Origin: Candidatus Omnitrophota bacterium
Lineage (GTDB): Bacteria > Omnitrophota > Gorgyraeia > Zapsychrales > Fredricksoniimonadaceae
NCBI GenBank assembly: GCA_043775535.1
Contig: JAYVSG010000127.1
Coordinates: 1-44,829, forward strand
DNA length: 44,829 nucleotides
Direction of reading: 5' to 3'
The translations under genes and the position numbers were made by a program. Position 1 is the stretch's first letter. Every line of letters begins with the position of its first letter. The notes beneath the pieces are model-generated. The model had not been told where the DNA came from. It was given only the letters and a program-made list of their open reading frames with translations, and did no database searches. This document shows positions 1,976-41,586 of the stretch, in pieces.

Positions 1976-2217
1976 AGGACTGGTCCGTATACATCGTGCG
2001 CTGCAGCGACGGGACCCTGTATACCGGATCCACCAATGATATCGAACGCCGCCTTAAGATGCACAATGAAGGCAAGGGCGCACGGTATACGTCCGGCCGG
2101 GGACCGGTGCAATTAGGATATAGAGAGAACGGCTGGACCAAGTCCCAGGCATTCGCGCGCGAGGCCGCCATCAAGTCTTTGACCCGTCTTGATAAAATAA
2201 AACTCTGCAATATGTGA
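1972..2217 (+). CDS. GIY-YIG domain protein (UPF0213/YhbQ-like small nuclease-fold protein)
   Basis: 81 aa. WSVYIVRCSDGTLYTGSTNDIERRLKMHNEG reads as the GIY...YTG...R..H motif set. ATGA overlap with the glpK stop. Confidence 0.85.
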   Translation: MKDWSVYIVRCSDGTLYTGSTNDIERRLKMHNEGKGARYTSGRGPVQLGYRENGWTKSQAFAREAAIKSLTRLDKIKLCNM

Positions 2218-2224
2218 GATCAGT

Positions 2225-3727: not shown

Positions 3728-3738
3728 CAGAGGGGCAT

Positions 3739-4809
3739 ATGAACACTGAATCCAAAACATTTTTAGTTGACCTTTTAAGCCAATGCGGGCCTTCCAGCGC
3801 CGAGGAAGCAAACCGTGCCGTATGGGTGAAGCGCACACAGAAATTTGCGGATCAATTGCGTGTGGATGTGCACGGCAATGCCATTGCGGCATTGAACCCG
3901 AAAGCAGAATTCAAGGTCATGCTGGCCGGCCATATTGATGAGATCGGATTTTTGGTTTCCCATATCGACAAGGAAGGTTTCCTTTATGTCATCGCCATCG
4001 GTGGCATCGATCCGGCCGTACTGCCCGGGACCTCGGTCAAGATATTGACCGCCAACGGCCCCATCGACGGCATCATTGGCAAGAAGCCCATCCATTTGAT
4101 GGAAGAGAGCGAACGCGGCAAGGCCATGCAGATCAAGGATTTTTGGATCGACATCGGCGCCAGCGACCGGGAAGATGCCTTGAAGGTTGTTGAGTTGGGA
4201 GACCCTGTTTCTTATGCGCCCAACGTGAAATTCTTGCGTAATGACATGTTCACCTCCAAGGGCTGCGACGACAAAGTCGGCGCCTTTGTTGTCTCCGAAG
4301 TCGTTAAGATCCTGGCCGCCTCCAAAAAGCTCGACAAGAAGATCGGTGTGTGGTCGGTTGCAACCGTGCAGGAAGAAGTTGGCTTGAGGGGCGCCCGCAC
4401 ATCCGCCTTCGGCATTGCCCCGCACGCGGCCATTGCCGTGGATGTCGGCTTCGCGTCCGACACACCGGGCATCGACAAGAAGGTCGTCGGTGAAGTGGCC
4501 CTGGGCAAAGGCCCTGTCCTGCACAAGGGTCCGAATACCAATCATATCCTGGGAGATCTCCTGGCCAAGACAGCCAAGGCCAAAAAGATCCCGTACCAAT
4601 TCTCTTCGCTTGGACGCCCGGACGGCACGGACACCGGTGCCATCCAGATCGCCCGCGACGGCACGGCCACGGCCCTGGTCAGCATACCGAATCGCTATAT
4701 GCATACCATGGTCGAGACCTGCTCGCTGACCGACTTGGTCCATTCCGCGGAACTCATTGCCCAGAGCATTCTGGCCATGAAGCCCGGGATGAGCTTTGTC
4801 CCCAGATAA
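3739..4809 (+). CDS. M42 family metallopeptidase (glutamyl aminopeptidase / FrvX-like)
   Basis: 356 aa. GHIDEIGFLVSHIDKEGFL, GCDDKVGA and QEEVGLRGA are typical M42 metal-ligand motifs. GAGGGG RBS. Confidence 0.85.
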   Translation: MNTESKTFLVDLLSQCGPSSAEEANRAVWVKRTQKFADQLRVDVHGNAIAALNPKAEFKVMLAGHIDEIGFLVSHIDKEGFLYVIAIGGIDPAVLPGTSVKILTANGPIDGIIGKKPIHLMEESERGKAMQIKDFWIDIGASDREDALKVVELGDPVSYAPNVKFLRNDMFTSKGCDDKVGAFVVSEVVKILAASKKLDKKIGVWSVATVQEEVGLRGARTSAFGIAPHAAIAVDVGFASDTPGIDKKVVGEVALGKGPVLHKGPNTNHILGDLLAKTAKAKKIPYQFSSLGRPDGTDTGAIQIARDGTATALVSIPNRYMHTMVETCSLTDLVHSAELIAQSILAMKPGMSFVPR

Positions 4810-5741
4810 TGACCGCATTGTTCAAAGCCGCCTTTGAGAAACGCATTCCCCTGCGTGAGCACACCAATGCCCTGCGCCTGGTCAATGGGCGGGGCGACGG
4901 TCTCGATGGGCTCATTCTTGAGGAATACAACGGCCATTTCGTGGCCCAGGCTTTTGAATCCCGCTGGGTTGCGCAGGCAGAGCTGATCGCAGAGATCGTG
5001 CGCACCCACTTCAAACCGCAATGCCTCCTGCTCAAGGACCGTTCCACGACGGCCTCATCTGCTGCCGACGACATTACATCCCGCTTCCTGATCAAGGGGG
5101 CGTCCCAAACAACAGTCCAAGAATATGGGCTTTCGTTCGCGGTCGATGTGCATGACGGATTGAATGCGGGATTGTTCCTGGACATGCGCGCCAATCGTCG
5201 GATGGCAGGCGCGGTCTGTAAGGACAAAAAGGTGCTCAACTGTTTTTCCTATACCTGTTCCTTCGGCGTGCATGCGCGCGCCAATGGTGCCGCCGAGGTC
5301 TTGAATGTGGACTTGAGCCGCAATTACCTTAAGCGCGGGCAGGACAATTATGCTTTGAATAAGTTTGCGCCTGGACGCGGTGAGTTCCTTTGTTTTGACG
5401 CGGTAGAATTTTTGGAAAAAGCGGTCAAGAAGGCCAATTGTTTTGATGTGATCATCATCGATCCGCCGTCCTTTGCGCGGGGGGACAAAAAGACCTTCCA
5501 GGTCAAGCGCGACCTCCCGGCGTTATTGGACAATGCCGTGAAGGTGATCACTCCTGGCGGGCATATCCTTGTTTCCACGAATTTCAACGGCATTGCGCAT
5601 ACGGACCTCAAGGGCATGTTAAAGCACGCCGCTGACAGCCGGCCCATCAAGGACATGGCCCCCATCGGGCAGGACAAGGATTTTCCCGGCACCAATACCT
5701 TCAAAGAAAGTTATCTGGCGGGCGTATGGGCATCATTTTAG
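4809..5741 (+). CDS. Class I SAM-dependent RNA methyltransferase (RlmI/RlmK-like)
   Basis: 310 aa. LNCFSYTCSFGVHA (SAM motif I region) and IIIDPPSF (motif IV). TAATG overlap with the upstream gene. Confidence 0.7.
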   Translation: MTALFKAAFEKRIPLREHTNALRLVNGRGDGLDGLILEEYNGHFVAQAFESRWVAQAELIAEIVRTHFKPQCLLLKDRSTTASSAADDITSRFLIKGASQTTVQEYGLSFAVDVHDGLNAGLFLDMRANRRMAGAVCKDKKVLNCFSYTCSFGVHARANGAAEVLNVDLSRNYLKRGQDNYALNKFAPGRGEFLCFDAVEFLEKAVKKANCFDVIIIDPPSFARGDKKTFQVKRDLPALLDNAVKVITPGGHILVSTNFNGIAHTDLKGMLKHAADSRPIKDMAPIGQDKDFPGTNTFKESYLAGVWASF

Positions 5742-6433
5742 GCAAGGTCGCTTTGGAACGCGCCCTGTCCAAACTGGGTCTCGCATCGCGTTCACAAACA
5801 CGCCAATGGATATTGGAGGGACGGCTTGGTGTCAATGGCCGGACCGTCAAGGACCCTGATTTCCTAGTTGTTCCTGAGAAAGATGTTTTTACCGTCGACG
5901 GCAAGGCCCTGAAGCCAGCGGCCCGGCAGACCATCATGCTCAATAAACCCAAAGGCTATGTGACGACCAAGAGCGACGAGAAAGGCCGCAAGACCGTCTA
6001 TGATCTCTTGCCGAAAGAGCTGCATAATCTGCATCCGGTCGGCCGCCTGGACATGAACACCACCGGCCTCCTACTGTTGACCAATGACACCAAATTATCG
6101 AGTTACCTGACCGAACCCTCCAATGGCATTGAACGTGAATATGTCGTGAGCGTTGAAGGCAGGATCGAGGACAAGGACATTGAAGTTCTCTTGGCAGGCA
6201 TTGAGGACGACGGAGAGATCCTTAAGGCCAGTCAATTGACCGCGCGCAAGATCAGCGGCCGCGAATCACATTTGGATGTTATCCTGACCGAAGGCAAGAA
6301 CCGCGAGATCCGCCGCATGTTCAAGGCCATCGGCCATGAAGTGATCTCCCTTAAGCGCATTGCGTTTGGCACCGTCACCCTGGGCGATCTGCCGTCGGGC
6401 CAGTATAAGAATATCAGCATGGGTCAGCCATGA
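5726..6433 (+). CDS. Pseudouridine synthase, RsuA/RluB family (S4 domain plus catalytic domain)
   Basis: 235 aa. S4-like LERALSKLGLASRSQTRQWILEGRLGVNG and the catalytic HPVGRLDMNTTGLLLLTND motif. Confidence 0.85.
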   Translation: MGIILGKVALERALSKLGLASRSQTRQWILEGRLGVNGRTVKDPDFLVVPEKDVFTVDGKALKPAARQTIMLNKPKGYVTTKSDEKGRKTVYDLLPKELHNLHPVGRLDMNTTGLLLLTNDTKLSSYLTEPSNGIEREYVVSVEGRIEDKDIEVLLAGIEDDGEILKASQLTARKISGRESHLDVILTEGKNREIRRMFKAIGHEVISLKRIAFGTVTLGDLPSGQYKNISMGQP

Positions 6434-7659
6434 TCTACGATTCCATCATCATAGGCGCAGGTGCGGCAGGTTTGATGACTGCGATCACGGCCGCGCGGGG
6501 CGGGGCTCAGGTGCTCCTGTTGGACGGTCAGAAGAAGATCGGGGCCAAGATACTCATGTCTGGCGGCACCCGCTGCAATGTCACCAACAAGGCGGTGAGC
6601 GAGAAGGATTACAACAGCGGTCAGCGGATGCGCGTGCGCAATATCCTGCGCGGTTTCGACAATATCCAGGCCATCCGTTTTTTCAAGGAGATCGGGGTGG
6701 AGCTGGTGCTCGAGCCCACAGGGAAATATTTCCCGACCACACATTCAGGCAAAACAGTCCTCGATGCCCTGCTCGCCGAATGCGGCAAGTTGAATATCGA
6801 GGTCAAGGCGGAGCATAAGGTGGAAGCGGTCACTTTTGCAGAGGGCATTTTTACCGTGCGCGGCAATGGATTTGGTTTTCAAGGCAGGACGGCCGTTCTC
6901 ACGACCGGCGGCCTTTCCTATCCCGGCACGGGCAGCGACGGGATTGGATTCCGAATTGCCCAGTCCTTCGGCCATACGGTCTTAGACACCATGCCGGCCC
7001 TGACACCGCTCACCACGGATGATGAAGAGTTAAAGTCGATCAGCGGCATTGCCCTCCCCGTTGCGCTGGACCTTTACAGCAAGGGTAAAAAGAAGCTTTC
7101 CATGACGGGGGACTTCCTGTTCACGCACATCGGCTTCAGCGGCCCCGTGGCCTTGGACATCAGCCGGCATTGGCTGGCCTGTGCCGCACAGTCCCCGCAG
7201 ATCTTTGCGAATTTTTTCCCTGAACATACGACCGAGACGTTCACAGCCTTCATACAAGATGAAAGCATCAAGCATCCCAAGAAGACGCTCAGGACCGTCT
7301 TGACCGACAGGATGGCCCAGCGCATGGCGGCGGTATTGCTGGCCAAACAAAAACTCGATGGCAATGTCCTGCTCAACCAATTGGGCAAGGAAGCCCGCCG
7401 GAGGTTGGCCGAAGCCTGCACGCATTATCCGCTTGCCATCAGCGGGGCGGTTGGATATAGTAAGGCAGAAGTCACTGCAGGCGGTGTTGACCTCGCTGAA
7501 GTCAATCCCAAAACGCTTGAGTCGAATGAACAACAAGGGCTGTTCTTGGCCGGCGAAGTTTTGGACGTCGACGGCAGGATCGGTGGTTTTAATTTCCAAT
7601 GGGCCTGGGCCAGCGGGCATGCTGCGGGACAGGCGATCGCACGAAAGGAAAAGAAATGA
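6430..7659 (+). CDS. HI0933/YhiN-like FAD-binding flavoprotein (aminoacetone-oxidase-like family)
   Basis: 409 aa. IIIGAGAAGLM dinucleotide fold, MSGGTRCNVTN, and the C-terminal GEVLDVDGRIGGFNFQWAWASG signature. Confidence 0.85.
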   Translation: MIYDSIIIGAGAAGLMTAITAARGGAQVLLLDGQKKIGAKILMSGGTRCNVTNKAVSEKDYNSGQRMRVRNILRGFDNIQAIRFFKEIGVELVLEPTGKYFPTTHSGKTVLDALLAECGKLNIEVKAEHKVEAVTFAEGIFTVRGNGFGFQGRTAVLTTGGLSYPGTGSDGIGFRIAQSFGHTVLDTMPALTPLTTDDEELKSISGIALPVALDLYSKGKKKLSMTGDFLFTHIGFSGPVALDISRHWLACAAQSPQIFANFFPEHTTETFTAFIQDESIKHPKKTLRTVLTDRMAQRMAAVLLAKQKLDGNVLLNQLGKEARRRLAEACTHYPLAISGAVGYSKAEVTAGGVDLAEVNPKTLESNEQQGLFLAGEVLDVDGRIGGFNFQWAWASGHAAGQAIARKEKK

Positions 7660-8036
7660 GCAAGAAGATCATCAAGACAGACAAGGCATCCTTACCCGTT
7701 GGGCCGTACAACCAGGCTGTTTCCATCGGGAATTTAATTTATACGGCAGGACAGATCCCCCTCGACAGGTTAGGCAACATGGTCGCCGGCGGCATCAAGG
7801 AACAGACCCAGCAGGTGTTGGAAAATGTGAAGTCGGTGATCGAGGCCGGCGGTTCCAAGCTCGACAATGTCGTCAAGGCCACGGTGTTCCTGAAAGACCT
7901 CAATGATTTTGCAGGCATGAACGAGATCTACAGCCAGTATTTCAAGTCAGAGAATGCACCGGCGCGCACCACCATCCAGGTCTCCCGCATTCCCAAGGAT
8001 TCCCTGGTCGAGATCGAAGTCGTTGCCCATACCTAA
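7656..8036 (+). CDS. ridA: RidA/YjgF family reactive-intermediate deaminase
   Basis: The listed ORF starts at 7599, but MSKKIIKTDKA... at 7656 gives a typical 126-aa RidA (PVGPYNQAVSIGNLIYTAGQIPL). This start also makes an ATGA overlap with the upstream stop. Confidence 0.9.
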   Translation: MSKKIIKTDKASLPVGPYNQAVSIGNLIYTAGQIPLDRLGNMVAGGIKEQTQQVLENVKSVIEAGGSKLDNVVKATVFLKDLNDFAGMNEIYSQYFKSENAPARTTIQVSRIPKDSLVEIEVVAHT

Positions 8037-8044
8037 GGAGCGAT

Positions 8045-8617
8045 ATGAAATATTGTGCGATGGTCTTGATGACTGCGTCATTGCTCTTGAGCGGTGCCTG
8101 CCAAACGTATGCAGCAGGAGGAGAAACCATGCCCAGGAGCATTTATGATCTTACCGTCAAGACCATCGATGGCCAGGAGAAGTCCCTTGCGGATTACAAG
8201 GGCAAGGCGCTTTTGATCGTGAATACCGCAAGCCATTGTGGCTTTACCTCGCAGTACAAAGGACTGGAAGCCCTATATCAGGAATATCGGTCCCAAGGTT
8301 TCGAAGTCCTGGGTTTCCCGGCCAATAATTTCATGGGCCAGGAGCCGGGCAGTAATGAAGAGATCAAGAAATTCTGCGAGTTGAAATACAAGACCACCTT
8401 CCCGATGTTTGCCAAGATCAGTGTGGCTGGAGGGGATCAAGCCCCGCTCTATGCCTACTTGACCAAGGAGAGCCCTTTCCCGGGATCTATCTCCTGGAAT
8501 TTCAACAAGTTCCTGATCGACCCCACGGGCCGGGTGGCTGCGCGTTTTGATTCCAGGGTGACTCCCCAAGCGCCTGAACTGGTGGAAGAGTTAAAGAAGG
8601 TCCTGCCCAAGCCGTAA
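8045..8617 (+). CDS. Glutathione peroxidase family protein with N-terminal signal peptide (Cys type)
   Basis: 190 aa. LIVNTASHCGFTSQY, FPANNFMGQEPG and WNFNKFLID motifs. A hydrophobic N-terminal leader precedes the mature domain. Confidence 0.9.
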   Translation: MKYCAMVLMTASLLLSGACQTYAAGGETMPRSIYDLTVKTIDGQEKSLADYKGKALLIVNTASHCGFTSQYKGLEALYQEYRSQGFEVLGFPANNFMGQEPGSNEEIKKFCELKYKTTFPMFAKISVAGGDQAPLYAYLTKESPFPGSISWNFNKFLIDPTGRVAARFDSRVTPQAPELVEELKKVLPKP

Positions 8618-8653
8618 GTGGCATCAAGTATATATATATGGTATCCTTTCGGC

Positions 8654-11600
8654 ATGTTCCGCAAGGGTGCCATTTTTTGCCTTATCCTGTCCTTTTTCTC
8701 TTCGACCGTGATCGGGCCGGCCTATGCCCAGGGGGTGCAGGAATTGCCTGTGCCGGGTGCCATGGTTGCCTTAAGCCCGGCCTTTGAACCGGTCTTGCTT
8801 AAAGGCCTTAAGGTCGATCCCCAGAACCCATTCGCTTTTGATTTCATTGTGGATACCGGCAGCGATCCCGTCATTGCAAACGAAGAAAAGCAATCCCAAT
8901 TAAAAGCAGAGGCCGACACCCTGATCAAATATTTCATGGCCGCCATGACGGTGCCTGAGAAGGACCTGTGGGTCAACCTTTCGCCCTATGAAAAAGACCG
9001 TATGATCGCCCCTGATCTTGGGCAGACGGAAATGGGACGGGACATGCTGGCCCAGGATTATGTGCTCAAGCAATTGACCGCCTCGCTGATCTATCCGGAG
9101 AAAGAATTGGGCAAGACATTCTGGGACAAGGTTTATGCCAAGTCCCGCGAACTTTACGGCACCACCGAGATACCGGTCAATACGTTCAATAAGGTCTGGA
9201 TCGTCGCTGACCGCGCCGACGTCTTCGAACGCGGAAATACGGCGTATGTCACAGGTGCGCATCTTAAGGTCATGCTTGCGGAAGACTATACAGCTATACA
9301 GAAGCAGATAGTTAAAGCGGGTGACCCGAAGGCGGGGACCCCGTACGCCCGCAGCGTAAGCGAGGACGAACGGGGTGCCGCAGGGGCAGGACCCGCTTCA
9401 CTAGCTTCTCAGATCGTCCGCGAAGTCATCCTTCCTGAATTGGAAAAAGAAGTGAATGCCGGCCAGAACTTTGCGCCGCTTCGACAGATGTTCTATGCCA
9501 TGATCCTGGCCTCCTGGTACAAGACCGCCCTCAAGGATGCGGTCCTGACCCAGGTCTATGGCAACCAGGGTAAGGTTTCCGTCGGTGTCAATGCGATGGA
9601 TGAAGGGGAGAAGGACAAGATCTTCGAGCGTTACCTGCAGGCCTACAAGAAGGGTGTGTTCAATTATATCAAGGACACGGCCGCTCCCGATGGTACATCC
9701 ATCCCTCGCAAATATTTCTCCGGCGGTGCCGACTTTGCCATGCTGGGCCGACCTGGCTTCCTGCATCGCAGCCAGACCGAGCTGCCGGCATCCGGCCTGA
9801 TCACGGGCAAGGCCTTCAAGGTCAGCGGGGATGCGGCCATGAACAGCGGGTCGTCATCTGTGCCGGACCAGACGGAACATCCGGATTTTGGCAGAATGTT
9901 CGATGCGAATGCACTTCTTACCTTCACAAGAGAGGATGCATACATTGATCTTCACCATTTGGGAGCTGCCATCTGGGCGGGGTTTCAGAGCAACAAAGCA
10001 GGGGTCAAAGGGATCACCATTCAAGATAAATTTGTTCTGCCTAAGGCAATGTTTTATAAGCTTGACCCGGATGGATTGGCACTACCTCTGTCTCAAGAGG
10101 AGATATCCCGACTGCCTAAAGAGACAGGGGTTGTTCACTTGAGATTGGATGATAAGAACGAAGCGTTTGCCTTCTTGTCCGGCGGCACCATTGTACTGGC
10201 CACATCCGGTTTTTCGATCGCTCCGGAACAAGATGCGGGAGACCAGCAGGCGGTCATAGACCGCCAGCAGCCCTTATATGCCAAGATGGTTTTGCTCACG
10301 GATCCCCGGCAAGCCATACGCAAGATGCTTAGGGAAGAGTTTGAGAAAAAAGGAGCGGTGGTCACTGAATTTGTCGGTAAGGAAGAGGACATTGTGCATC
10401 ATATCAGGGGCATCGATCTGGTCGTCATGGATGCGAGTGATGGGGGAACGGAGGAATCCAAGGACATGGCTATAGAGACCGCCAAGTTCCTAAGTGCCCA
10501 GGGAACCCCCGTTATCATGTTTACGCAACAGGATCCCACAGAAATAAACGGAGAATTATGGCGCCGGGGGATAACGGCTTCGGTCAAGGTTGCCGTTGTT
10601 GCCAAACAGTCCGGGCCGGTAAATATCATGTGGCATGCACGGCGAATGATCGAGGAGAAGGACAAGGCAATGTTGAGCTTGGTCTCCAGACCGCAATTGG
10701 ATTTTATGACAGATGTGCAGCCGAGATTCGATGCATTTCAGAAAGCCATTGAAGAAGTCGAACGGCTCTATCAAAAGCCGTACACGGATAAAGAAGCCCT
10801 TGCCCTGCTTTATCAGGAGGCATGGAAGAACAGCGGGGATCAGGAATCTTTATGGAATGCCTTGGTGAAAATAGAAGGCCTGCAGGAGGGCTTTGACCAA
10901 TACGAGCTTTCTCTTTTCACGCCGAAATTTGGTAATGTCGTCGACAAAGAAGATGTGCCGGAGATCCTTGAGGCGCACATGCAGCGGTCCATGGACCAGG
11001 CATATGCCCGGATGAAGGTCACTTTTGACGAGAGGATCAAAGATGCAACGGATGGAGAGCTGGAGGGCTTTTACGGTCTTTTTAGATGGGCACAAACAGA
11101 ATATCTGCGCGCCTTGGAAGATCCTGAAGATGCCCAGATAGGCGTGATGGCCATGTCCGCGCTTAATGCGGCACATGATTATTTTAGGGACAGAGCTCTG
11201 GATCTTGCAATGACGTCAAAGCCGGGCTCCCTTAAGGAGTCGATATCTAAGCGCCTAGCCCACTTCAGGTCTGAGGGCAATCATGCTATGGCGGACAATA
11301 TGATCGTGCTGATGGCTGTGCTGGTGCACGGCAATACTGGACCTATCGACCTTAAACAGTATGCAACAGAAGACAAGCTGCAAGAATTGATCGAAGATTT
11401 TGCATCAGCCGTTAGAAAGATGGGCAATGGCCCTTCAGCCTTGAGAGGGTTCTTAGCTCGGGGTTATCCTGTAGTTAAGAATGTAACGACCTTGGCGCCG
11501 GCATTTAATTTGGAAGCGCTTGTTGTATTCAGCGGTGTAAGGCATCGGGACTCCGCCATGACCGCCATTGTGGGCAGGGACGGTCTTTTGGCGCTGCCGG

Positions 11601-13192
11601 TGGGCGCGCGGGCCATATTGTTCACGGAGTCGGAGCATGACAAAGAGCAGCACCGTGACCGGGTGGCGACGGTTCTACGCACAGATGCCGCCAAAGGCAC
11701 CATTACGTTCGCGATCCCCATGAAAGGCTGGCCAAAAGACATCGAGGAGGAATATTTTGTGGATGAGTTTGGCGGGGAACGCAGGCTGAAGCTGATCAAG
11801 GCTATCCCATTGTCGAGCGAAGATGAAGCCACATGGGAGGAAGGCAAGGCGCTGCTCAAGAAGATACACGCGGAATTCAATAGGTTCAATGAATTTGGGC
11901 GAAGCGTGAGCGGGAATTTCAATGGGCTTGGGCATTTGATGGGAGGGCTCAATTCCGTTCTTTACCAGGAGTATTCCGATGTCATGGCCATGAATGCCAT
12001 GGACAAGGACTCGGATGAGGAAATGTTGACATTGCTTAAGATCATCCGCCGGCAGGTGGACAAATATTCGGACCAACAGGCGCGGTCAAAGATCTTGTCC
12101 GAGGCAAAAGATTTTCTGGCAAGATACAAGAACGTGCATGGAGATTCACGCGACGGCATGAAGAACACTTATTTTCTGTCGCTGTTCATCCAGGAAGTAT
12201 TTGAGAATGACGAGGAGTATGGGCATTTCGTCGACCATTTGAAGGTAGTCAAAGGTACGTTGGATGCCCATTCTGAGCGTATCAAAGACATTATCTCAGG
12301 GTTCTATCAACGCGACCAGCCCGATACTGTTCGAGACCCGGCCATGATCGGTGAATGGCGCAAGACGCGGCAGAACTTCATTTATAAATTCGCATGGGAG
12401 AGGGATAACGATAGTGTCATATTGGCCGTCAGTCCTGACTACCAGGACGGCGCCCGCGATGGACAGATCATTTATGAGATATTTCCCGTCCCATGGAAAG
12501 GGCAAAGTGAACAGGATATCATGGGCTTATATAAGGGGCATGTCACACTGACCCTAAAAGAGGGGGTGGTGACCGGCTGGCAGTCATTGGCTATTTCACC
12601 GCGCCGTGAGAAGGAGATGCCTTGGCTTGTTGGTTTCCTGGAGAGCAAACTTGAGACCTTAAAAGGAAAAATCTTATACCATGAGGCTACGTTCAGGGAA
12701 TTCGTTGAGACCTTCGCTCCCCAAGAGAAGGAAATTGCGTTGAGGGTTATGCAGATGTATCTCACCTATCTTGCAGGGGATCTGCCTGAATTCAACAAAG
12801 CCTCCCTTCCCGATAGTGTGGACATCTTCTTGGAGCGTTTTACACATACATTTCATGCTAAAACATTTTCCGATTTTAGGGATGTCGCCTTCTTGATGAG
12901 CCCTCTGAAGTATCAGGAAATGGTCGACTTGAGCATTCGTAATATATACACACAGATGACAGGGAGGCTCTTGGTCGAGTTCCGTGACCCGGCCATGGCC
13001 GTTACACCCGGCGGTATCGACCTTGACCGCGCCAAGATGCAGATGAATATTGAGAAAGAGGGCGAAGGGGTCAGGATGAAACTCAACCAGGAGCTGGTCG
13101 ACCGCATCCGGCGCCAGGGTTTTGACGGCCTGGAATTCAATATCCGCACCATTGTGCCTATCATCGACCTCAGGCAATTCCTATTTGCTTGA
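8654..13192 (+). CDS. Giant secreted protein of unknown function (~1,512 aa)
   Basis: Single uninterrupted ORF, 8618-13192 in the track. I prefer the ATG at 8654 because it yields a canonical Sec leader, MFRKGAIFCLILSFFSSTVIGPAYA|QG. No catalytic family motif recognised. Confidence 0.8.
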   Translation: MFRKGAIFCLILSFFSSTVIGPAYAQGVQELPVPGAMVALSPAFEPVLLKGLKVDPQNPFAFDFIVDTGSDPVIANEEKQSQLKAEADTLIKYFMAAMTVPEKDLWVNLSPYEKDRMIAPDLGQTEMGRDMLAQDYVLKQLTASLIYPEKELGKTFWDKVYAKSRELYGTTEIPVNTFNKVWIVADRADVFERGNTAYVTGAHLKVMLAEDYTAIQKQIVKAGDPKAGTPYARSVSEDERGAAGAGPASLASQIVREVILPELEKEVNAGQNFAPLRQMFYAMILASWYKTALKDAVLTQVYGNQGKVSVGVNAMDEGEKDKIFERYLQAYKKGVFNYIKDTAAPDGTSIPRKYFSGGADFAMLGRPGFLHRSQTELPASGLITGKAFKVSGDAAMNSGSSSVPDQTEHPDFGRMFDANALLTFTREDAYIDLHHLGAAIWAGFQSNKAGVKGITIQDKFVLPKAMFYKLDPDGLALPLSQEEISRLPKETGVVHLRLDDKNEAFAFLSGGTIVLATSGFSIAPEQDAGDQQAVIDRQQPLYAKMVLLTDPRQAIRKMLREEFEKKGAVVTEFVGKEEDIVHHIRGIDLVVMDASDGGTEESKDMAIETAKFLSAQGTPVIMFTQQDPTEINGELWRRGITASVKVAVVAKQSGPVNIMWHARRMIEEKDKAMLSLVSRPQLDFMTDVQPRFDAFQKAIEEVERLYQKPYTDKEALALLYQEAWKNSGDQESLWNALVKIEGLQEGFDQYELSLFTPKFGNVVDKEDVPEILEAHMQRSMDQAYARMKVTFDERIKDATDGELEGFYGLFRWAQTEYLRALEDPEDAQIGVMAMSALNAAHDYFRDRALDLAMTSKPGSLKESISKRLAHFRSEGNHAMADNMIVLMAVLVHGNTGPIDLKQYATEDKLQELIEDFASAVRKMGNGPSALRGFLARGYPVVKNVTTLAPAFNLEALVVFSGVRHRDSAMTAIVGRDGLLALPVGARAILFTESEHDKEQHRDRVATVLRTDAAKGTITFAIPMKGWPKDIEEEYFVDEFGGERRLKLIKAIPLSSEDEATWEEGKALLKKIHAEFNRFNEFGRSVSGNFNGLGHLMGGLNSVLYQEYSDVMAMNAMDKDSDEEMLTLLKIIRRQVDKYSDQQARSKILSEAKDFLARYKNVHGDSRDGMKNTYFLSLFIQEVFENDEEYGHFVDHLKVVKGTLDAHSERIKDIISGFYQRDQPDTVRDPAMIGEWRKTRQNFIYKFAWERDNDSVILAVSPDYQDGARDGQIIYEIFPVPWKGQSEQDIMGLYKGHVTLTLKEGVVTGWQSLAISPRREKEMPWLVGFLESKLETLKGKILYHEATFREFVETFAPQEKEIALRVMQMYLTYLAGDLPEFNKASLPDSVDIFLERFTHTFHAKTFSDFRDVAFLMSPLKYQEMVDLSIRNIYTQMTGRLLVEFRDPAMAVTPGGIDLDRAKMQMNIEKEGEGVRMKLNQELVDRIRRQGFDGLEFNIRTIVPIIDLRQFLFA

Positions 13193-18992: not shown

Positions 18993-20593
18993 GCAAATAC
19001 ATCTTCGTCACAGGTGGTGTTGTTTCCAGTTTGGGCAAGGGGATCGCGGCCGCATCGCTGGCCAAATTGCTTGAGGCCCGCGGCCTTAAGATCGCCATCA
19101 TCAAGTGTGATCCCTACCTGAATGTCGATCCCGGCACCATGAACCCATACCAGCACGGTGAGGTCTATGTCACCGACGACGGGGCAGAGACCGACCTGGA
19201 CCTGGGGCACTATGAGCGTTTCACCAATTCACTCTTGTCCAAGGACAGCAGCATCACCGCCGGCAAGGTCTATTATTCCGTCATCACCAAGGAACGCCGC
19301 GGGGATTACCTGGGCAAGACCATCCAGATCATCCCGCACATCACCGATGAGATCAAGGAACGCATCAAGAAGGTCGCCAAGGCCAATGATGTGGACATCA
19401 CCATCGTCGAGATCGGCGGCACCGTGGGCGACATTGAAAGCCTGCCGTTCCTGGAAGCCATCCGTCAGCTGCGCTGGGAATTGGGCGAGCATTATGCGCT
19501 CAACATTCACGTGACCCTTCTGCCGTACATCAAATCCGCCGGCGAACAGAAGACCAAGCCCACTCAGCATTCGGTCGGTAAATTGCGCGAGATCGGTATT
19601 ATCCCGAACATCCTGTTATGCCGCACGGAAAAGCCCATTGCGCAGGACCAGCGTGAGAAGATCGCCCTGTTCTGCAACGTGGACGTGGATTCCGTCATCG
19701 AAGCCGCGGACGTCAAACACATTTATGAAGTGCCTTCGGCGTTGAAGAAGGAAGGGCTCGATACACTGGTCTTGAAGAAGCTCAACATCAAGCTTCCGGA
19801 TCGCGGACTCAAGGCATGGGAAGACGGGGTCTTAAAGCGCCTGCGTTCGCCGGCCAAGGAAGTCAAGATTGCCGTCGTCGGGAAATATATCGCCCTGCAG
19901 GATGCGTACAAATCCATTTATGAAGCGCTGGTCGCGGCCGGCATTGCCAATAATGCCAGGGTCAATATCGTGAAGATCGACTCCGAGGACCTGGAAAAGG
20001 GCGACCCCAAGAAATTTTTGAAGGGTGTGCATGGAGTATTGATTCCCGGCGGCTTCGGCAGCCGCGGCATCGAAGGCAAGGTCAGGGCTGTCCAGTATGT
20101 GCGCGAGAACAAGATCCCGTTCTTCGGCATTTGTTTAGGGATGCAGATCGCCACCATCGAATTCGCGCGCCACATGTGCCATTTCAAGGACGCCAATTCG
20201 ACCGAATTCAACAAGGAAAGCGGCCATCCGGTGATCAGCTTGATCGAGGAGCAGAAGAAGGTGAAGAACCTTGGCGCCTCAATGCGTCTGGGTACCTATG
20301 TTTGCGCCGTTGAAAAGGGGACCAAGGCCTTTGATTCCTACAAGTCGGCGAAGATCTCCGAGCGCCACCGCCATCGGTATGAATTCAACAATGAATACCG
20401 CGCCAAACTTGAAGAAAAGGGTTTTGTGATCGCCGGGCGCAACCCGGAACGCGACCTGGTCGAGATCATTGAGATCAAGGACCATCCGTGGTTTGTCGGC
20501 TGCCAATTCCATCCTGAGTTCAAGTCCAAACCCGATGCGGCCCATCCCTTGTTCCGGGCCTTCATCGCGGCCGCGCTGGCGGGTGAAAAATAA
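18989..20593 (+). CDS. pyrG: CTP synthase
   Basis: 534 aa. [19 protein letters not shown] and the GATase motif GICLGMQ...HRHRYE. ATGA overlap with purF. Confidence 0.95.
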
Positions 20594-20615
20594 TAGGGGA
20601 CAGTCCCCTATTTTT
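20594..20615 (+). terminator. Intrinsic terminator, copy 1 of the AGGGGAC..GTCCCCT element
   Basis: TAGGGGACAGTCCCCTATTTTT sits directly after the pyrG TAA. GC stem plus a T-tract. Confidence 0.7.
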
Positions 20616-20636
20616 CTGGTATACCTTTACGAGTCG

Positions 20637-20661
20637 AAATAGGGGACAGCCCCCTATTTTT
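20637..20661 (+). terminator. Second tandem hairpin/terminator, copy 2 of the same element
   Basis: AAATAGGGGACAGCCCCCTATTTTT lies 21 nt after copy 1 and 16 nt before tRNA-Leu. Confidence 0.55.
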
Positions 20662-20677
20662 AACATTTGTTAGATTT

Positions 20678-20759
20678 GCGTGGGTGGCGGAATTGGTATA
20701 CGCGCACGTTTGAGGGGCGTGTGCCGCAAGGCTTGAGGGTTCGATTCCCTCCCCACGCA
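20678..20759 (+). tRNA. tRNA-Leu (anticodon GAG), class II with long variable arm, no encoded CCA
   Basis: Folded by hand. Acceptor GCGTGGG/CCCACGC. Anticodon stem CACGT/GCGTG with loop TTGAGGG. Variable arm GCC-GCAA-GGC. T arm GAGGG-TTCGATT-CCCTC. Discriminator A. Confidence 0.9.
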
Positions 20760-20791
20760 TTTTAATTTTAGTATTACCATTTCTTGCTTTT

Positions 20792-21496
20792 ATGACCAAA
20801 CCCATCGAAATATCTGCCAGCATCCTATCTGCAGACTTTGCCAACCTCGCTTCCGACATCAAAAAAAGCGAAGCCGCGGGTGTCGCCCGTTTCCACATCG
20901 ATTGCATGGACGGCCATTTCGTCCCGAACCTGACCATCGGTCCCATTATTGTCGAGGCCGCGCGCAAGCATACCCGACTTCCGCTGGAAGCGCATTTGAT
21001 GATCGAGCACCCGGGGCAATACATCGAGAGTTATGCCAAGGCCGGGGCGGACATCATCCAGCTGCAGGTGGAATGTTATGGCACGCGCAAGGCTTCTGCC
21101 CGGAACTGGGACCAGTGGCCCAAGGAAGTCGAGGCCGTGGACATTGATGCTTTACGTGCGGACCTCAAGAAGATCCGTGGTTTTGGTAAAAAAGCCTTTA
21201 TTGTCCTTAATCCGGGCACGCCGGTCATTAAGGATGTTTTGGGGGATTGCGACGGCGTCCTGGTCATGTCGGTCAATCCCGGTTTTGCCGGCCAAAAATT
21301 CATGTCTGAAGCCCTGCCCAAGATCGAAGGGCTCAAAAAGACCTTCCAAGGCGATATTGCCGTCGATGGAGGGGTCAATGCCCAAACCGCCCCCGCGGCG
21401 GTCAAGGCAGGCGCCCATGTTCTCATTACCGCCAGCTATTTCTACGGGGCCCCGGATTGGTCAAAAGCCGCGGCCTATTTGAAAAGTCTCTCCTAG
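20792..21496 (+). CDS. rpe: Ribulose-phosphate 3-epimerase
   Basis: 234 aa. SILSADFANL, HIDCMDGHFVPNLT, MSVNPGFAGQKF and VDGG motifs. Carries an insertion of roughly 20 aa relative to the E. coli enzyme after AGADII. Confidence 0.9.
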   Translation: MTKPIEISASILSADFANLASDIKKSEAAGVARFHIDCMDGHFVPNLTIGPIIVEAARKHTRLPLEAHLMIEHPGQYIESYAKAGADIIQLQVECYGTRKASARNWDQWPKEVEAVDIDALRADLKKIRGFGKKAFIVLNPGTPVIKDVLGDCDGVLVMSVNPGFAGQKFMSEALPKIEGLKKTFQGDIAVDGGVNAQTAPAAVKAGAHVLITASYFYGAPDWSKAAAYLKSLS

Positions 21497-21517
21497 CGTG
21501 GTATATTTATAGTACTT

Positions 21518-21832
21518 ATGAAGATGAACACTACAGCCCAAACCGCCATTGAGTATTTACTGCTCTCAAGCGTCGTGGCCACGCTTGTTTTTATGGCGTT
21601 CGCCCGGGGCGGGTTCATGTCCCAGGTGCACAATACGGCCAATGAGTATTACGAGGATGCGGCCAGGGTCATCATGGGGGATAACCCTAAGCCGATCAAT
21701 GGGGGATGGTGTGAATGGACCCCGTGTTCTCCCGGAGTGGCAACAAGTTACCGCACCTGCGAATGCCCCTCACCTGCCTTTGGCGGCAGTGAGTGCGGCC
21801 CTATCTCGGACGCCAAGAAGGGCTGCAGTTAA
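21518..21832 (+). CDS. Small pilin-like protein: Flp/class-III-signal-type N-terminus plus a Cys-rich C-terminal thrombospondin-type-1-repeat-like module
   Basis: 104 aa. The N-terminus MKMNTTA|QTAIEYLLLSSVVATLVFMAF has E at +5 and Y at +6 followed by a hydrophobic helix. The C-terminus is WCEWTPCS...RTCECPSPAFGGSECGP...GCS. Confidence 0.65.
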   Translation: MKMNTTAQTAIEYLLLSSVVATLVFMAFARGGFMSQVHNTANEYYEDAARVIMGDNPKPINGGWCEWTPCSPGVATSYRTCECPSPAFGGSECGPISDAKKGCS

Positions 21833-22758
21833 GTCTTCCGCTGGTCCCTGACGAAATTACTTTTTCCAACACTCTTTGCATACTTCTTTAATTCCGCACC
21901 GATCTCACCGACCTGCGCCACGTGGTTGATGTTCTGTCCGCGGTTGCTCACAATGCCGATCGAAATGGCGACGAAGGTGGCCGTGGTCGGGTTGCCCTGG
22001 CGGTCCTTGCCCATGATGAAACCGGCCTGGCGGTCCTCTTCGCTGTAAAAGGCGGGCGCTGCGAGGTCAAAGGCATCAATGATTTTTTGGCTCACCGCAT
22101 CCGCCTTGTCATCATCACAGATGAAGACGAAATCATCGCCGCCGATATGGCCCACAAAGCCTTCCGGCCCTGCGCCGGTCTGTGTCGCATCGAGCAGGAT
22201 GCGGGCGGTGGCGCGGATGATCTCATCGCCTCTTTCAAAACCGTATTTATCATTGAAGATCTTGAACTTGTCCAAGTCCGCGTACCCGACGGCAAAGAGC
22301 TTTCCGGAATCGATGCGGTTCTGCAATTCATCCATGATGGAGGCATTGCCCGGCAGGCGCGTCAACGGGTTGGCATCGAGGGAACGGATGGTGCGTTTGA
22401 GGATCATGCGGATGCGGGCGAGCAAGGCTTCGGGCTCGAAGGGTTTGATCAAATAATCGTCGGCGCCGGCCTCGATGCCGGTGACCATGTCCTTGGTGTC
22501 GCCTTTTCCTGTCAGCATGATGACGGGCAAATGGCTTAACAGCACGTCCTTGCGCAGTTCGCGCACGAATTGCGGGCCGGTCATGACCGGCATCATGTAG
22601 TCGGTGATGACAAGGTCGGGGGCTTTGAGTTTGACCATTTCCAGGCCTTCCTTGCCGTTGGGCGCGGAGATGACCGTGTAATGTTCCGAAAGGGTAAGGT
22701 TCAGGACGTCCAGGATGTCGGGATCGTCGTCGATGGTGAGGATCTTTTCTTTACGCAT
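21829..22758 (-). CDS. Response regulator: REC domain plus GGDEF-family domain with a non-canonical GGDDF motif
   Basis: 309 aa. REC motifs ILTIDDDPD...DLVITDYMMP...MLTGKG...IKP. GGDEF-type ADLDKFKIFNDKYGFERGDE...HIGGDDF. Confidence 0.85.
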   Translation of the reverse strand: MRKEKILTIDDDPDILDVLNLTLSEHYTVISAPNGKEGLEMVKLKAPDLVITDYMMPVMTGPQFVRELRKDVLLSHLPVIMLTGKGDTKDMVTGIEAGADDYLIKPFEPEALLARIRMILKRTIRSLDANPLTRLPGNASIMDELQNRIDSGKLFAVGYADLDKFKIFNDKYGFERGDEIIRATARILLDATQTGAGPEGFVGHIGGDDFVFICDDDKADAVSQKIIDAFDLAAPAFYSEEDRQAGFIMGKDRQGNPTTATFVAISIGIVSNRGQNINHVAQVGEIGAELKKYAKSVGKSNFVRDQRKT

Positions 22759-28199: not shown

Positions 28200-29009
28200 T
28201 TAGTCATCGTTCTGCAGCAGGGACGCTGTGATCATCACGCCGAGGATGGTCAAGACGTAGACAAGCTTTTCCAGGACACCGTGAAAATTCGAATCAGCGG
28301 ACATCACGCCGAAATTCATCGCGAATCCTGCCGTCAGGACCAGGCGCAGGATATTGATGGAAAAGGCCAACGGGATGAGGGAGGCCAGGATCGCCCATCT
28401 TTTCACCGTTGAAGCGCTTTGGATGTAGGCATAGGGCGCGGCGAAACCGGCCAGCAGCACGGTTGAATAAAAGACCGTCATGTCGCCGTGCAGGGGGATC
28501 GTGTATTTAGGGATGTTGAGGAACGCGCCTTCGGTCGACGAGGGCACCTGGAGCGCAGTCAGAAGCCAGGCAGTGCCGTGCACGATCACGGCGTTGAGCT
28601 GTGCCGATAAGGCGGCCGTCCAGGCGTCGGGGATCGAAAAGACAGCAATGGCATAGAGTGCGGCAAGCGGCAAGGCGCGGGCAGTGCCATTGTCCTTATG
28701 TTCCTTGACGGCAGCGCGTGCGGGCATGACTTCATCAGAAGGCCGGATGTCGACCTGGTTGGAAAATATTTTCACTTCTTCAAGGATACGTGAGCTGATG
28801 GGTTCGGCAGCAGGGGCAGCAGCCTGTTCAGCCATTGCGTTCTCGACAGCTTCCTTGATGACCGCCTGTTTGGAGGCAGTTTCACGCGCTTCCTCGACGC
28901 GCTGGGCAGTTTCCTGCTGGATCCGGCGCTGTTCGGTCATTTCAATGATCTGCCGGGTGGTGTATTTACGGCGATAAGATGTGGGAGCGGGTGTTGTTTG
29001 GTCTGACAT
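28200..29009 (-). CDS. Polytopic membrane protein, tentatively exosortase/archaeosortase-like, with a ~110-aa charged N-terminal extension
   Basis: 269 aa with about 5 TM helices. PLAFSINILRLVLT (N..R motif) and FHGVLEKL (H..G) resemble exosortase signature blocks. No Cys at the expected CSG position. Confidence 0.35.
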   Translation of the reverse strand: MSDQTTPAPTSYRRKYTTRQIIEMTEQRRIQQETAQRVEEARETASKQAVIKEAVENAMAEQAAAPAAEPISSRILEEVKIFSNQVDIRPSDEVMPARAAVKEHKDNGTARALPLAALYAIAVFSIPDAWTAALSAQLNAVIVHGTAWLLTALQVPSSTEGAFLNIPKYTIPLHGDMTVFYSTVLLAGFAAPYAYIQSASTVKRWAILASLIPLAFSINILRLVLTAGFAMNFGVMSADSNFHGVLEKLVYVLTILGVMITASLLQNDD

Positions 29010-32668: not shown

Positions 32669-32745
32669 TGGTAGCCCCAACCGGATTTGAACCGGTGTTT
32701 TCTGCCTGAGAAGCAGACGTCCTGACCAGGCTAGACGATGGGGCC
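32669..32745 (-). tRNA. tRNA-Glu (anticodon CTC) with encoded CCA
   Basis: Folded by hand on the minus strand. Acceptor GGCCCCA/TGGGGCT (G1-U72). D stem GTCT/GGAC. Anticodon stem TCTGC/GCAGA with loop TTCTCAG. T arm ACCGG-TTCAAAT-CCGGT. Ends A-CCA. Confidence 0.85.
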
Positions 32746-32778
32746 TTAGGAAGACATAAAATATAACACAAGGCGGGT

Positions 32779-33306
32779 TTACGTCAACTGTTTATTGCCA
32801 CCGGCCAGCAGGCGCAATTGGGCGGGGGTGAGCATCCAATTGAAGGTCGCAGATCCGGGTCCGGAAAGCTTTTCTGCCCGCAAACTGCAGAGGCCGCCTT
32901 TTTTGAATTCGATGGGGATGCTTTGGCCGCCGACTAGCAGGAAGGACACCATGCCGCTCAGGTGCGGCTCATGTCCGACGAGTAAAATGCGTCGGGCTTT
33001 TGGGAAATGTGTTGTGAGTTCTTTGAGCAGGTCTTCAAAAGCGGCAAAGGGGGTCAGCTGTTCCGTGATCCGGATGTCGGATGTCCGGATCTTGAAGACA
33101 GAAGCCACGATGGCGGCGGTCTGTTCTGCCCGCACATAGGGGCTTGAGAGCACAGCGTCAAAGGAGATGTCCAGCGCCTTCATGCCGCGCGCATTGTTCT
33201 GCATCTTGGCCCGGCCTTCATCCGTCAGCGGGCGCCGGCTGTCGTCTTCATATCCCGGTGTGCCGCGTTCAACGGCGATCGCATGTCTTAAGAAATATAG
33301 TTCCAT
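32779..33306 (-). CDS. sixA: Phosphohistidine phosphatase SixA
   Basis: 175 aa from MELYFLRHAIAVERG (RH motif), plus SSPYVRAEQTA and VGHEPHLS. The 358-aa listed ORF is an upstream read-through with no coding support. Confidence 0.85.
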   Translation of the reverse strand: MELYFLRHAIAVERGTPGYEDDSRRPLTDEGRAKMQNNARGMKALDISFDAVLSSPYVRAEQTAAIVASVFKIRTSDIRITEQLTPFAAFEDLLKELTTHFPKARRILLVGHEPHLSGMVSFLLVGGQSIPIEFKKGGLCSLRAEKLSGPGSATFNWMLTPAQLRLLAGGNKQLT

Positions 33307-40773: not shown

Positions 40774-41586
40774 ATGAAAAATAATGTCATAGTCATTTTA
40801 TTGGTGGTGTTGATCGGTGTATTGTCCGGCGTCGGCCTTTTGTTCGGCATCGGCAATGCGGTCCAGGTCGCGACCTATCCCCTGGTCGAGAAATTAAGCG
40901 AAGTTGCGGCAGGACAGAAATCCATCGAGACCAAGCTCAATGTTCTGGACGCCAAGTTGACCTCGCTCAATGCCCAGGTCAGCAGCCGTTTGGCCGCTAA
41001 TGGTGGGGCCCAGCCGCAACAGCCCCAGCGTCCGCAGCCTCCGGCGGAAGATTACAATAAGGTCTATCCCATCCCTGTCGGTAATTCCATCATCGTCGGC
41101 AAGAAGGACGCGCCGGTCACCATCCAGGAATTCACCGACCTGCAATGTCCGTTCTGCGCCCGTTTCCATCCGGTGATCAATGAGGCCCTGAAGGCCTATC
41201 CGGACAAGGTGAACCTGCTCATCAAGAATTTCCCTCTGCCGTTCCATCCGAATGCCAAGCCTGCCGCCAAACTCACGCTGGCTGCTGCTGAACAGGGCAA
41301 GTATTATGAAATGGTGGAGATCCTGCTTGAGAACGGCGCGGATGTTACCGAAGCCAAGGTTAAGGAATATGCCCAGAAACTGGGTCTAAACTACGATAAG
41401 CTATTGGCTGCAGGCAAGGCCAATGATGCCAAGTATGAACAGCAGATCGCTGATGATATGGCGCTGGCCAATCAGGTGGAAGTGCGCGGTACACCGACCT
41501 TCTTCATTAATGGCAAGAAGACCATGGCCCGCGATCTGGCCGGTTTTAAGGCCGAGATCGATAAGATCCTGGCGGCTAAAAAATAG
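40774..41586 (+). CDS. DsbA-family thiol:disulfide oxidoreductase with N-terminal TM anchor, coiled segment and Pro/Gln linker
   Basis: 270 aa. CPFC active site and a C-terminal VRGTPTFFING (cis-Pro loop). AGGAGG RBS. Confidence 0.85.
   Translation: MKNNVIVILLVVLIGVLSGVGLLFGIGNAVQVATYPLVEKLSEVAAGQKSIETKLNVLDAKLTSLNAQVSSRLAANGGAQPQQPQRPQPPAEDYNKVYPIPVGNSIIVGKKDAPVTIQEFTDLQCPFCARFHPVINEALKAYPDKVNLLIKNFPLPFHPNAKPAAKLTLAAAEQGKYYEMVEILLENGADVTEAKVKEYAQKLGLNYDKLLAAGKANDAKYEQQIADDMALANQVEVRGTPTFFINGKKTMARDLAGFKAEIDKILAAKK

Follow-up and report, generated by a model that had tools for sequence, protein, structure and literature searches.

Why would a bacterium encode a protein of 104 amino acids (aa) that begins like a pilin and ends like an adhesive repeat of animal matrix proteins? 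The question is raised by a gene in the 44,829-nucleotide (nt) contig JAYVSG010000127.1 of a Candidatus Omnitrophota bacterium (assembly GCA_043775535.1); this whole stretch was analyzed and is called the window below. The Omnitrophota, widespread but uncultured, comprise ultra-small bacteria with a presumed predatory or parasitic lifestyle. Thrombospondin type 1 repeats (TSRs) have an adhesive, extracellular role and are characteristic of the matrix proteins of animals and of the adhesins used by apicomplexans in invasion. A sequence-only reading of the window had proposed a small pilin with a TSR-like head, forming a fiber that displays one repeat per subunit. Our analysis supports a class III (prepilin) signal at the N-terminus and a true but reduced TSR at the C-terminus. 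The reading that we favor, to which we give a probability of roughly 55%, is that this is a prepilin-type protein of a type IV filament, on which it would expose the TSR and, in other species, modular cargo, with a role in attachment. The protein is laid out as follows, with positions numbered along the window and AF2 denoting AlphaFold2.

21518..21832, + strand: 104-aa open reading frame (ORF) with its stop codon, coding sequence of a prepilin-like protein with a TSR-type domain
21518..21538, + strand: leader peptide MKMNTTA, residues 1-7, predicted to be cleaved after A7 (statistics of 85 family N-termini)
21539..21604, + strand: mature N-terminus QTAIEYLLL..., residues 8-29, a 22-residue hydrophobic tract and predicted alpha1-N helix (residue statistics, AF2, PF04021)
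21614..21673, + strand: residues 33-52, predicted to continue the long helix past an RGG kink as its second, amphipathic part (AF2)
21686..21829, + strand: reduced TSR, residues P57-S104, with the pattern PxPINGGWC...YRTCECPSPAFGGxxC...C (PDB profile, hhalign, Foldseek, AF2)

The ORF translates to MKMNTTAQTAIEYLLLSSVVATLVFMAFARGGFMSQVHNTANEYYEDAARVIMGDNPKPINGGWCEWTPCSPGVATSYRTCECPSPAFGGSECGPISDAKKGCS, exactly as the sequence-only reading had it. That reading had also claimed six cysteines and a WxxW pair, and both are present (C65, C70, C81, C83, C93, and C103; W64xxW67). Its one slip concerned the C-terminal peptide, quoted with 41 residues, whereas nt 21707-21826 comprise 40 codons (W64-C103). 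A search of 5.8 billion proteins returned 18 homologues at 38-61% identity, unannotated or called "hypothetical" except for one that JGI had named "Flp pilus assembly pilin Flp". In their alignment G54, P57, G62, W64, C65, C81, C83, P84, P86, A87, F88, G89, G90, and C93 are invariant, and E12 and Y13 nearly so. A survey of related metagenome-assembled genomes (MAGs) for the same head, which had been suggested from the sequence, proved productive: with each GTDB species represented by a single genome, 26 loci with the gene came up, and a further 51 metagenome loci carry it. The related clusters number about 100.

The N-terminus follows the rules of a prepilin cleavage site at the level of the family. 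Among 85 distinct N-termini, the position before the predicted cut (-1) is Gly in 67 and Ala in 18, with no other residue; the first mature position (+1) is Gln in 84, +6 is Tyr in all 85, and +9 is Leu or Ile, while Glu at +5 is fixed by the way in which the motif was anchored. The median distance to the first charged residue is 22 residues, and the window protein has a hydrophobic tract of exactly this length (Q8-A29), with E12 at +5 and Tyr at +6. A class III signal peptide has been described as a hydrophilic leader ending in Gly or Ala, followed by 21 mostly hydrophobic residues (PMC8179133), and substrates of the archaeal peptidase EppA carry a QXSXEXXXL motif with Q at +1 (PMC2910488). 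The family consensus G/QTSLEYLLL, in which the slash marks the cut, conforms exactly to Q(+1)-x-S/A-x-E(+5)-x-x-x-L, the motif of archaeal class III signal proteins of the DUF361 type. The family differs from the archaeal class III proteins in its bacterial host (Omnitrophota), in PF04021 scores of 12.8-22.5 bits against a gathering threshold of 23.7, and in a head domain unrelated to those of archaeal pilins.

Profile searches tell the same story more faintly. The window protein matches PF04021 (Class_IIIsignal) over residues 7-27 at 12.8 bits (E=0.12), and an NCBIfam scan of it returned nothing significant. PF04021 is nevertheless the sole N-terminal Pfam family matched, and it recurs across the family: 8 of 9 long relatives tested score 17-22.5 bits, as does protein P0070, and precomputed PF04021 matches exist for five database members. 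Searches with the N-terminal half alone found nothing. A 24-sequence N-terminal profile recovered solely family members with the TSR module, bar one 73-aa fragment on a 551-nt contig; with no TSR-less relatives to go by, the helix type could not be tied to a machine through them. In the AF2 model, helices span residues 5-28 (predicted local distance difference test [pLDDT] score 90-93) and 33-52, with the RGG kink between them and a pLDDT of 78-93 over the block, and the second helix contains the family motif GYYNxVTRVIMG; this prediction agrees with the N-terminal helix of about 50 residues expected of type IV filament pilins. We also considered a signal peptidase I site, A-F-A/R30, and rejected it: the site is unconserved, and the tract before it is of membrane-spanning length and holds the invariant Glu. 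Thus the pilin processing motif and hydrophobic helix seen in the single sequence reappear as family-wide constraints on the cleavage site, which a plain membrane anchor cannot explain and which support a class III signal.

The C-terminal module resembles TSRs weakly when taken alone and clearly when taken as a family. As a single sequence against the PDB, the protein found the TSRs of human thrombospondin-1 (TSP-1) weakly (E 1.7e-4), and Pfam TSP_1 (PF00090; gathering score 21.6 bits) did not match it. A profile built from 44 distinct modules (alignment A2) had as its top PDB match 1lsl, TSR2-3 of TSP-1 (E 5e-10), with UNC5B/D/A, ADAMTS13, complement C6, C8-alpha, and BAI1 next; the first 17 matches, from E 5e-10 to 1e-3, are all TSR proteins. 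No other cysteine-rich fold appeared in this search, and further matches are weak (E > 0.5, TDP-43). We therefore rejected the idea that the resemblance is an artefact of Cys/Gly/Pro composition. When the 44 modules were scanned singly, TSP_1 was the only recurring Pfam family, with 7 at E<=1 (best 7e-4) and none reaching the gathering score. Against 1.84 billion representatives, the full-length profile gave 1,106 matches at E<=1e-3 and 303 at E<=1e-10, the latter bringing family members and multi-TSR proteins together. The top 150 are of two kinds: family members matching the whole profile at their N-termini and proteins matching the module only, in 4 to 27 copies. Pfam finds 27 TSP_1 repeats in one such multi-TSR protein (P0020, E 1e-280), 15 in P0021, and 5 in P0122.

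Alignment of the module alignment with 22 repeats from verified TSR proteins (hhalign; 98.1% probability, E 1e-13, 42 columns) assigns most of the TSR core. W64 and W67 pair with the WxxW motif, C70-S71 with the "CS" of the first TSR cysteine (C1), R79 with the Arg before C3, C81 with C3, the residues P84, P86, F88, G89, and G90 with PxPxFGG, and C93 with C4, and C103 lies at the position expected for C5. The block PINGGW..W..C...R.C..P.P.FGG..C.G....C thus aligns column for column with TSRs (PF00090; TSP-1 TSR2/3, properdin, UNC5, ADAMTS13, and the apicomplexan TRAP/MIC2), and the predicted fold is alike. The family module differs in being shorter: the window module lacks C6 and the CSxxCGxG turn that bears C2. 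Two cysteines, C65 right after the first Trp and C83 in a CxC motif, form an invariant pair specific to the family. The Trp-Arg ladder (WxxWxxW/RxRxR in TSRs) appears minimal, comprising the first Trp and usually one Arg; the window protein has W64xxW67 and the single R79, and among 79 modules the second Trp is present in 19 and the Arg in 46, the first Trp alone being conserved.

Two relatives bridge the distance to canonical repeats. Protein P0029 (574 aa, with rpe synteny) carries three above-threshold TSP_1 repeats after its module (51.9 bits), one of which, GGWCGWSACSASCGMGTQTRACACPAPVYGGAAC, combines a canonical TSR core with both family-specific cysteines. At locus L006, a near-canonical TSR, GGWGPWSACDPPCGPGHRTRTC, follows eight residues past the module.

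The predicted structure points the same way, to the elongated, three-stranded fold of TSRs. An AF2 model made from a 52-sequence alignment (a first run with 19 sequences, pLDDT 63, was discarded) has a mean pLDDT of 86.7 and values of 91-94 across the module. When this model was compared with the PDB by Foldseek, the top 16 matches were all TSR-domain structures (TSP-1, ADAMTS13, complement C8, UNC5, properdin), with root mean square deviations of 2.8-5.6 Å over 51-62 columns and 27-37% identity; the probability is 0.84-1.00 for the top 11, and the E-values of 0.03-2.8 are high because the domain is so small. Disulfides were assigned from cysteine co-occurrence rather than model geometry. Among the 79 modules, the loop cysteine (C70) and a cysteine 5-13 residues after C93 (C103) are both present in 59, both absent in 10, and discordant in 10 (Fisher p=2.9e-6), the pattern that a C1-C5-type disulfide would produce. 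We infer the bonds 81-93 (C3-C4 of TSRs), 70-103 (C1-C5), and 65-83, a family-specific bond replacing C2-C6. Together, the profile, hhalign, and Foldseek comparisons support the module as a true but reduced TSR. The head proposed by the sequence-only reading therefore holds up as a TSR, though without a threshold match in Pfam and with two of the six TSR cysteines absent. That reading had named a lack of significant profile hits as grounds for refutation, and the single sequence indeed gives none (no TSP_1 match; Class_IIIsignal at E=0.12); both assignments hold at the level of the family.

What varies in this family is what follows the module. At the same locus, orthologues range from 83 to 1,642 aa; the post-rpe position is occupied by proteins of 1,034 aa at locus L005 and 1,366 aa at L019, and by others of 1,126, 1,151, and 1,138 aa. 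Of 67 representatives selected by strict motif criteria, the shortest has 89 aa and the longest 1,642 aa (median 297), and 16 have <=125 aa. The module occurs exactly once per protein and immediately follows the helices in every case. The tails of most long members are 10-15% cysteine, species-specific, and hypervariable, and comparison of long-orthologue tails with Pfam and NCBIfam returned no family beyond TSP_1 and one weak TIGR02232 match. The conserved unit, judged from these sequences, is leader, helix, and one TSR, to which a variable cargo is added: none in the window protein, and up to ~1,500 residues in other species. The window protein is then the minimal, bare-pedestal form of a modular pilin-like family, and with orthologues reaching 1,642 aa the TSR module is better seen as a conserved pedestal than necessarily as "the head". 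The family appears undescribed and was found here only in Omnitrophota MAGs; its architecture would read class III signal, helix, reduced TSR, and variable Cys-rich tail. Apart from the one JGI name, it is annotated solely as "hypothetical protein" and escapes Pfam thresholds, and a dedicated profile would improve annotation. The long-tailed members are good candidates for host or prey attachment.

The position of the gene is conserved too. Two neighbors frame it:

20792..21496, + strand: rpe (ribulose-phosphate 3-epimerase), conserved upstream neighbor (tblastn synteny; Pfam family seen for an orthologue)
21829..22758, - strand: REC-GGDEF response regulator, convergent, first gene of a conserved GGDEF-HK-FIST block (Pfam; HK, histidine kinase)

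The gene follows rpe by 21 nt, and its stop overlaps by 4 nt that of the convergent response regulator gene, whose active-site motif reads GGDDF; both distances are those given from the sequence alone. At 25 of the 26 GTDB loci, the gene closes the series carB-purF-pyrG-rpe-[gene], with REC-GGDEF, histidine kinase, and FIST genes next to it on the opposite strand, and this arrangement is kept in the most divergent subgroup. By tblastn, the synteny extends to all but one of the metagenome loci having >=900 nt upstream of the match. The exception is L070, where a Mutator-family transposase (1961-3235, - strand) lies directly upstream of a copy that has no rpe neighborhood. The 26 GTDB loci come from MAGs labelled Candidatus Omnitrophota or from Third Party Annotation (TPA) assemblies labelled "uncultured Planctomycetales"; the latter have the same gene order with neighbors 70-90% identical, and all 26 are Omnitrophota MAGs. 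Since neighboring proteins are 70-90% identical to those of the window and the pilin-like protein 35-57%, the latter must be constrained at a few motifs and otherwise fast evolving. Two overlapping ORFs (21549..21851, + strand, and 21493..21642, - strand) were considered as the gene and set aside, since it is the 104-aa frame that is conserved.

A chance ORF in the rpe-GGDEF spacer, with a TSR resemblance born of composition, would account for the lack of a Shine-Dalgarno sequence and of significant single-sequence matches in Pfam and NCBIfam. It is refuted by the conservation of invariant motifs across the ~100 clusters and by the contrast in identity between gene and neighbors, and the promoter described below is conserved as well; we give it practically no credence. 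The 104-aa ORF is a real conserved gene, far beyond chance.

The same neighborhood invites another explanation, that the protein is an uncleaved (type II) signal-anchor protein of the inner membrane, whose small periplasmic TSR-like domain might contact the FIST/HK/REC-GGDEF module. The GGDEF-HK-FIST neighborhood is strictly conserved, no pilus genes lie nearby, and the window encodes a DsbA-like protein, all of which would suit such an arrangement. The neighbors are convergent, however, and so are not co-transcribed with the gene, and the translocated copies at L006 and L070 keep the promoter but not the neighbors. A membrane anchor would also have no need of an invariant G/A at -1, Q at +1, E5, and Y6, and the A-F-A site before R30 is not conserved. 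We regard this explanation as improbable.

Expression of the gene appears to be driven by a promoter whose -35 box lies within the end of rpe:

21479..21484, + strand: -35 box TTGAAA, inside the 3' end of rpe (promoter scan, 10/12 matches)
21499..21507, + strand: extended -10 element TGgTATATT (promoter scan)
32669-32790, - strand: tRNA-Glu(CTC) and its promoter region, with the same extended -10 promoter type

The -35 and -10 elements are separated by 17 bp, and the ATG lies 10 nt after the -10 hexamer. An extended -10 of the TGnTATATTT type is present in 27 of 28 loci examined, in a spacer that is otherwise unalignable, and most of these 27 have a -35-like TTGnnA box at a 17-bp spacing (consensus TTtGc.AA-N17-TG.TATATTT). 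By inspection, the ATG is ~8-11 nt downstream of the -10 in ~22 of the 27; the five others have a longer leader, some with an AGGAG-like sequence. The motif TGNTATATTT occurs twice in the window against 0.13 copies expected, and its other copy precedes the tRNA-Glu(CTC) gene (32669-32745, - strand), with TTGACG 17 bp upstream (TTGACG-17 bp-TGTTATATT). This arrangement implies that the gene has its own sigma-70-type promoter and an mRNA that is leaderless or nearly so, with a predicted 5' untranslated region of ~1-5 nt. Such a short leader would explain why no Shine-Dalgarno sequence precedes the ATG, an absence that had been remarked on earlier and that we confirm. A promoter type shared with a tRNA gene suggests strong, constitutive transcription. 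The translocated L006 copy retains the promoter, and the copy beside the transposase at L070 suggests that promoter and gene form a unit movable by insertion sequence elements. Upstream, between pyrG and rpe (20592-20760, + strand), there is a terminator-like hairpin with a 9-bp stem at the pyrG stop, followed by tRNA-Leu(GAG) at 20677-20760.

How might such a protein work? In the favored reading, a prepilin peptidase of the A24 type, encoded elsewhere in the genome, would remove the leader MKMNTTA after A7, leaving Gln at +1 and Glu at +5. The N-terminal helix of ~45 residues would first sit in the inner membrane and then pack into the core of a type IV filament built by a Tad/Flp-like or a type IV pilus (T4P)/type II secretion system (T2SS)-like machine. 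The single disulfide-locked, reduced TSR would be exposed at the surface, in other species together with the tail; there the module would serve as a pedestal for a Cys-rich tail of up to ~1,500 residues, an adhesive cargo on the filament. Modular pilins are expected at the tip or in low copy (PMC8179133). The extreme length polymorphism of the orthologues likewise argues for a cargo-carrying low-copy or tip subunit, which would be the most likely location, rather than a bulk subunit. The fiber of identical TSR-bearing subunits imagined from the sequence alone thus fits less well as a simple major pilin, although a presumably strong promoter and the abundance of members without cargo leave that option open. 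Attachment to surfaces, host cells, or prey cells would be the most likely role; pilus assembly is deduced from sequence and model, and the adhesive function is plausible.

Several observations weigh against a filament. Single-sequence Pfam matches are below threshold: the window protein matches neither Flp_Fap (PF04964, searched to E<=10) nor TadE nor N_methyl (PF07963), and it has Ala at -1 rather than Gly. Similarity in sequence could by itself account for part of the modeled head. It is difficult to see how a filament would accommodate orthologues of more than 1,000 aa as ordinary subunits. Housekeeping genes surround this one, and the 44.8-kb window contains no gene for an assembly ATPase, platform protein, secretin, A24 prepilin peptidase, or Tad component; most related loci likewise have no pilus machinery or prepilin peptidase gene in their 10-kb flanks. 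The lack of tad/pil genes in the window had been pointed out before. The window holds housekeeping, redox, signaling, and envelope genes, and a six-frame scan of it revealed no other class III, type IV pilin, or TSR motif.

Links to machinery can be found elsewhere, but they are weak. Beside the translocated family copy at L006/L033 lies a divergent block (1-8650, - strand) that unusually combines components of type IV pili with those of conjugation systems: T2SSF, T2SSE (carrying an MshEN domain), three ORFs of small or medium size that lack annotation, a secretin, a 149-aa ORF, and a TraC_F_IV/TraG-type ATPase. At L005, a secretin gene lies ~5 kb downstream of the family gene. More broadly, nearly all Omnitrophota genomes encode type IVa pilus genes and many encode Tad complexes (PMC10066038), and small class III signal genes accompany T2SS/T4P-like secretion loci beside the giant genes of Omnitrophota (bioRxiv 10.1101/2023.11.21.568195).

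The lack of linkage at nearly all loci is one of the points that lend weight to a different use of the same signal. Here the protein would be cleaved by a prepilin peptidase and held at the surface by its hydrophobic N-terminus, or by a short pseudopilus or secretion stub, with no fiber; it would simply display its TSR module and, where an orthologue has one, the giant Cys-rich tail. In archaea, many surface proteins other than pilins carry class III signals, sugar-binding proteins and proteases among them (PMC2910488), the orthologues reach 1,642 aa, and the secretion loci beside Omnitrophota giant genes carry small class III signal genes of their own. This evidence is, however, also compatible with a minor or tip pilin. 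Pure display would also leave unexplained why a quarter of the members are <=125 aa and without cargo, and the GYYNxVTRVIMG motif of helix 2 is conserved as if it packed against partners. We consider surface anchoring without a fiber unlikely on balance, if the most serious of the alternatives.

Compared with known systems, the protein would work like a modular type IV filament pilin. On sequence grounds, the signal appears nearest to Flp pilins and archaeal class III signals, while the head is homologous to TSRs; by their own thresholds, the window protein is formally outside PF04964, PF07963, and PF00090. Flp/Tad pilins (Aggregatibacter Flp1, Caulobacter PilA) likewise have a short leader, a G/XXXXEY-type motif (A/QTAIEY in the window protein, with Ala for Gly, and G/QTxLEY in most relatives), and a hydrophobic helix, and are small products of orphan structural genes. 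Mature Flp/Fap proteins, however, have ~40-60 aa and no globular domain, whereas the mature window protein would have 97 aa, about twice the Flp size, with a disulfide-bonded TSR domain. In further contrast to Flp pilins, the family does not lie in a tad operon (TadV, TadA, TadB/C, RcpA) in the window or at the ~75 loci, has a nearly invariant Q at +1, and does not match PF04964.

In design, the family follows the "modular pilin" described for Streptococcus sanguinis PilB and PilC (PMC8179133). Modular type IV pilins (S. sanguinis PilB with a von Willebrand factor A domain and PilC with a lectin; CofB, TcpB, GspK) likewise graft adhesive modules onto a pilin module in variable architectures. 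They differ in having an N_methyl signal instead of the Flp/archaeal-type signal and the usual alpha-beta pilin head where the family has a TSR, and the family's cargo ranges from 0 to ~1,500 aa among orthologues at one locus. Our literature search found nothing linking type 1 TSRs to pilins or to Omnitrophota, the "thrombospondin" mentions for Omnitrophota being type 3 repeats. Dataset S1 of PMC8179133 does list a single protein with the architecture IPR012902-IPR000884-IPR000884 (two TSP1 repeats), which is not discussed there. In addition, protein P0021 (L030, 2404-6582, + strand; 1,392 aa) has an N-methyl pilin N-terminus (GFTLVEV...) and 15-16 canonical TSRs; its gene adjoins clpP and clpX in a bacterial contig. 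Its sequence shows TSR arrays on what appears to be a second pilin type.

A bolder version of this idea is that Omnitrophota possess a type IV filament of an unseen kind, in which a TSR stands in for the alpha-beta domain as subunit head, and that the same locus has diversified between species into giant cysteine-rich adhesins. We offer this tentatively and think it rather doubtful. If true, it would describe a fast-evolving organelle by which ultra-small, probably parasitic bacteria recognize hosts or prey, and a TSR adhesion fold native to bacteria and recruited independently onto Flp/archaeal-type and N-methyl-type pilins. The locus in any case offers a concrete, testable candidate for partner recognition in Omnitrophota, in the form of a single-copy gene, presumably under a strong promoter, for a protein predicted to be surface directed. 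It adds to the evidence for the use of TSRs in bacteria and would extend the modular pilin idea to Flp/archaeal-type signals.

A few further genes deserve mention. The GGDDF motif that replaces GGDEF in the convergent response regulator (21829-22758, - strand) is also found at L005 and L019. In Pfam this protein aligns to no more than two thirds of the GGDEF model, so it may be a degenerate cyclase or a receptor for cyclic di-GMP. At L034 (2517-5686, - strand), two genes are inserted between the P0029 TSR-pilin gene and the GGDEF gene; one encodes an HTTM (vitamin K gamma-carboxylase-like) membrane protein and the other a protein with a DCC1-like thiol-disulfide oxidoreductase domain, and the pair may have a role in maturation of the Cys-rich tail. 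In the window, the DsbA/thioredoxin-like protein (40774-41586, + strand; 270 aa) could supply disulfides to cysteine-rich exported proteins such as the pilin-like protein. Between a glutathione peroxidase gene and carA lies a 1,524-aa ORF (8618-13192, + strand) that has a signal-peptide-like N-terminus and matches no Pfam family; at this position, the related locus L001 instead encodes a response regulator of 125 aa. Finally, an exosortase (EpsH)-like membrane protein is encoded at 28200-29009 (- strand), a hint that the organism may sort proteins by a PEP-CTERM-type system.

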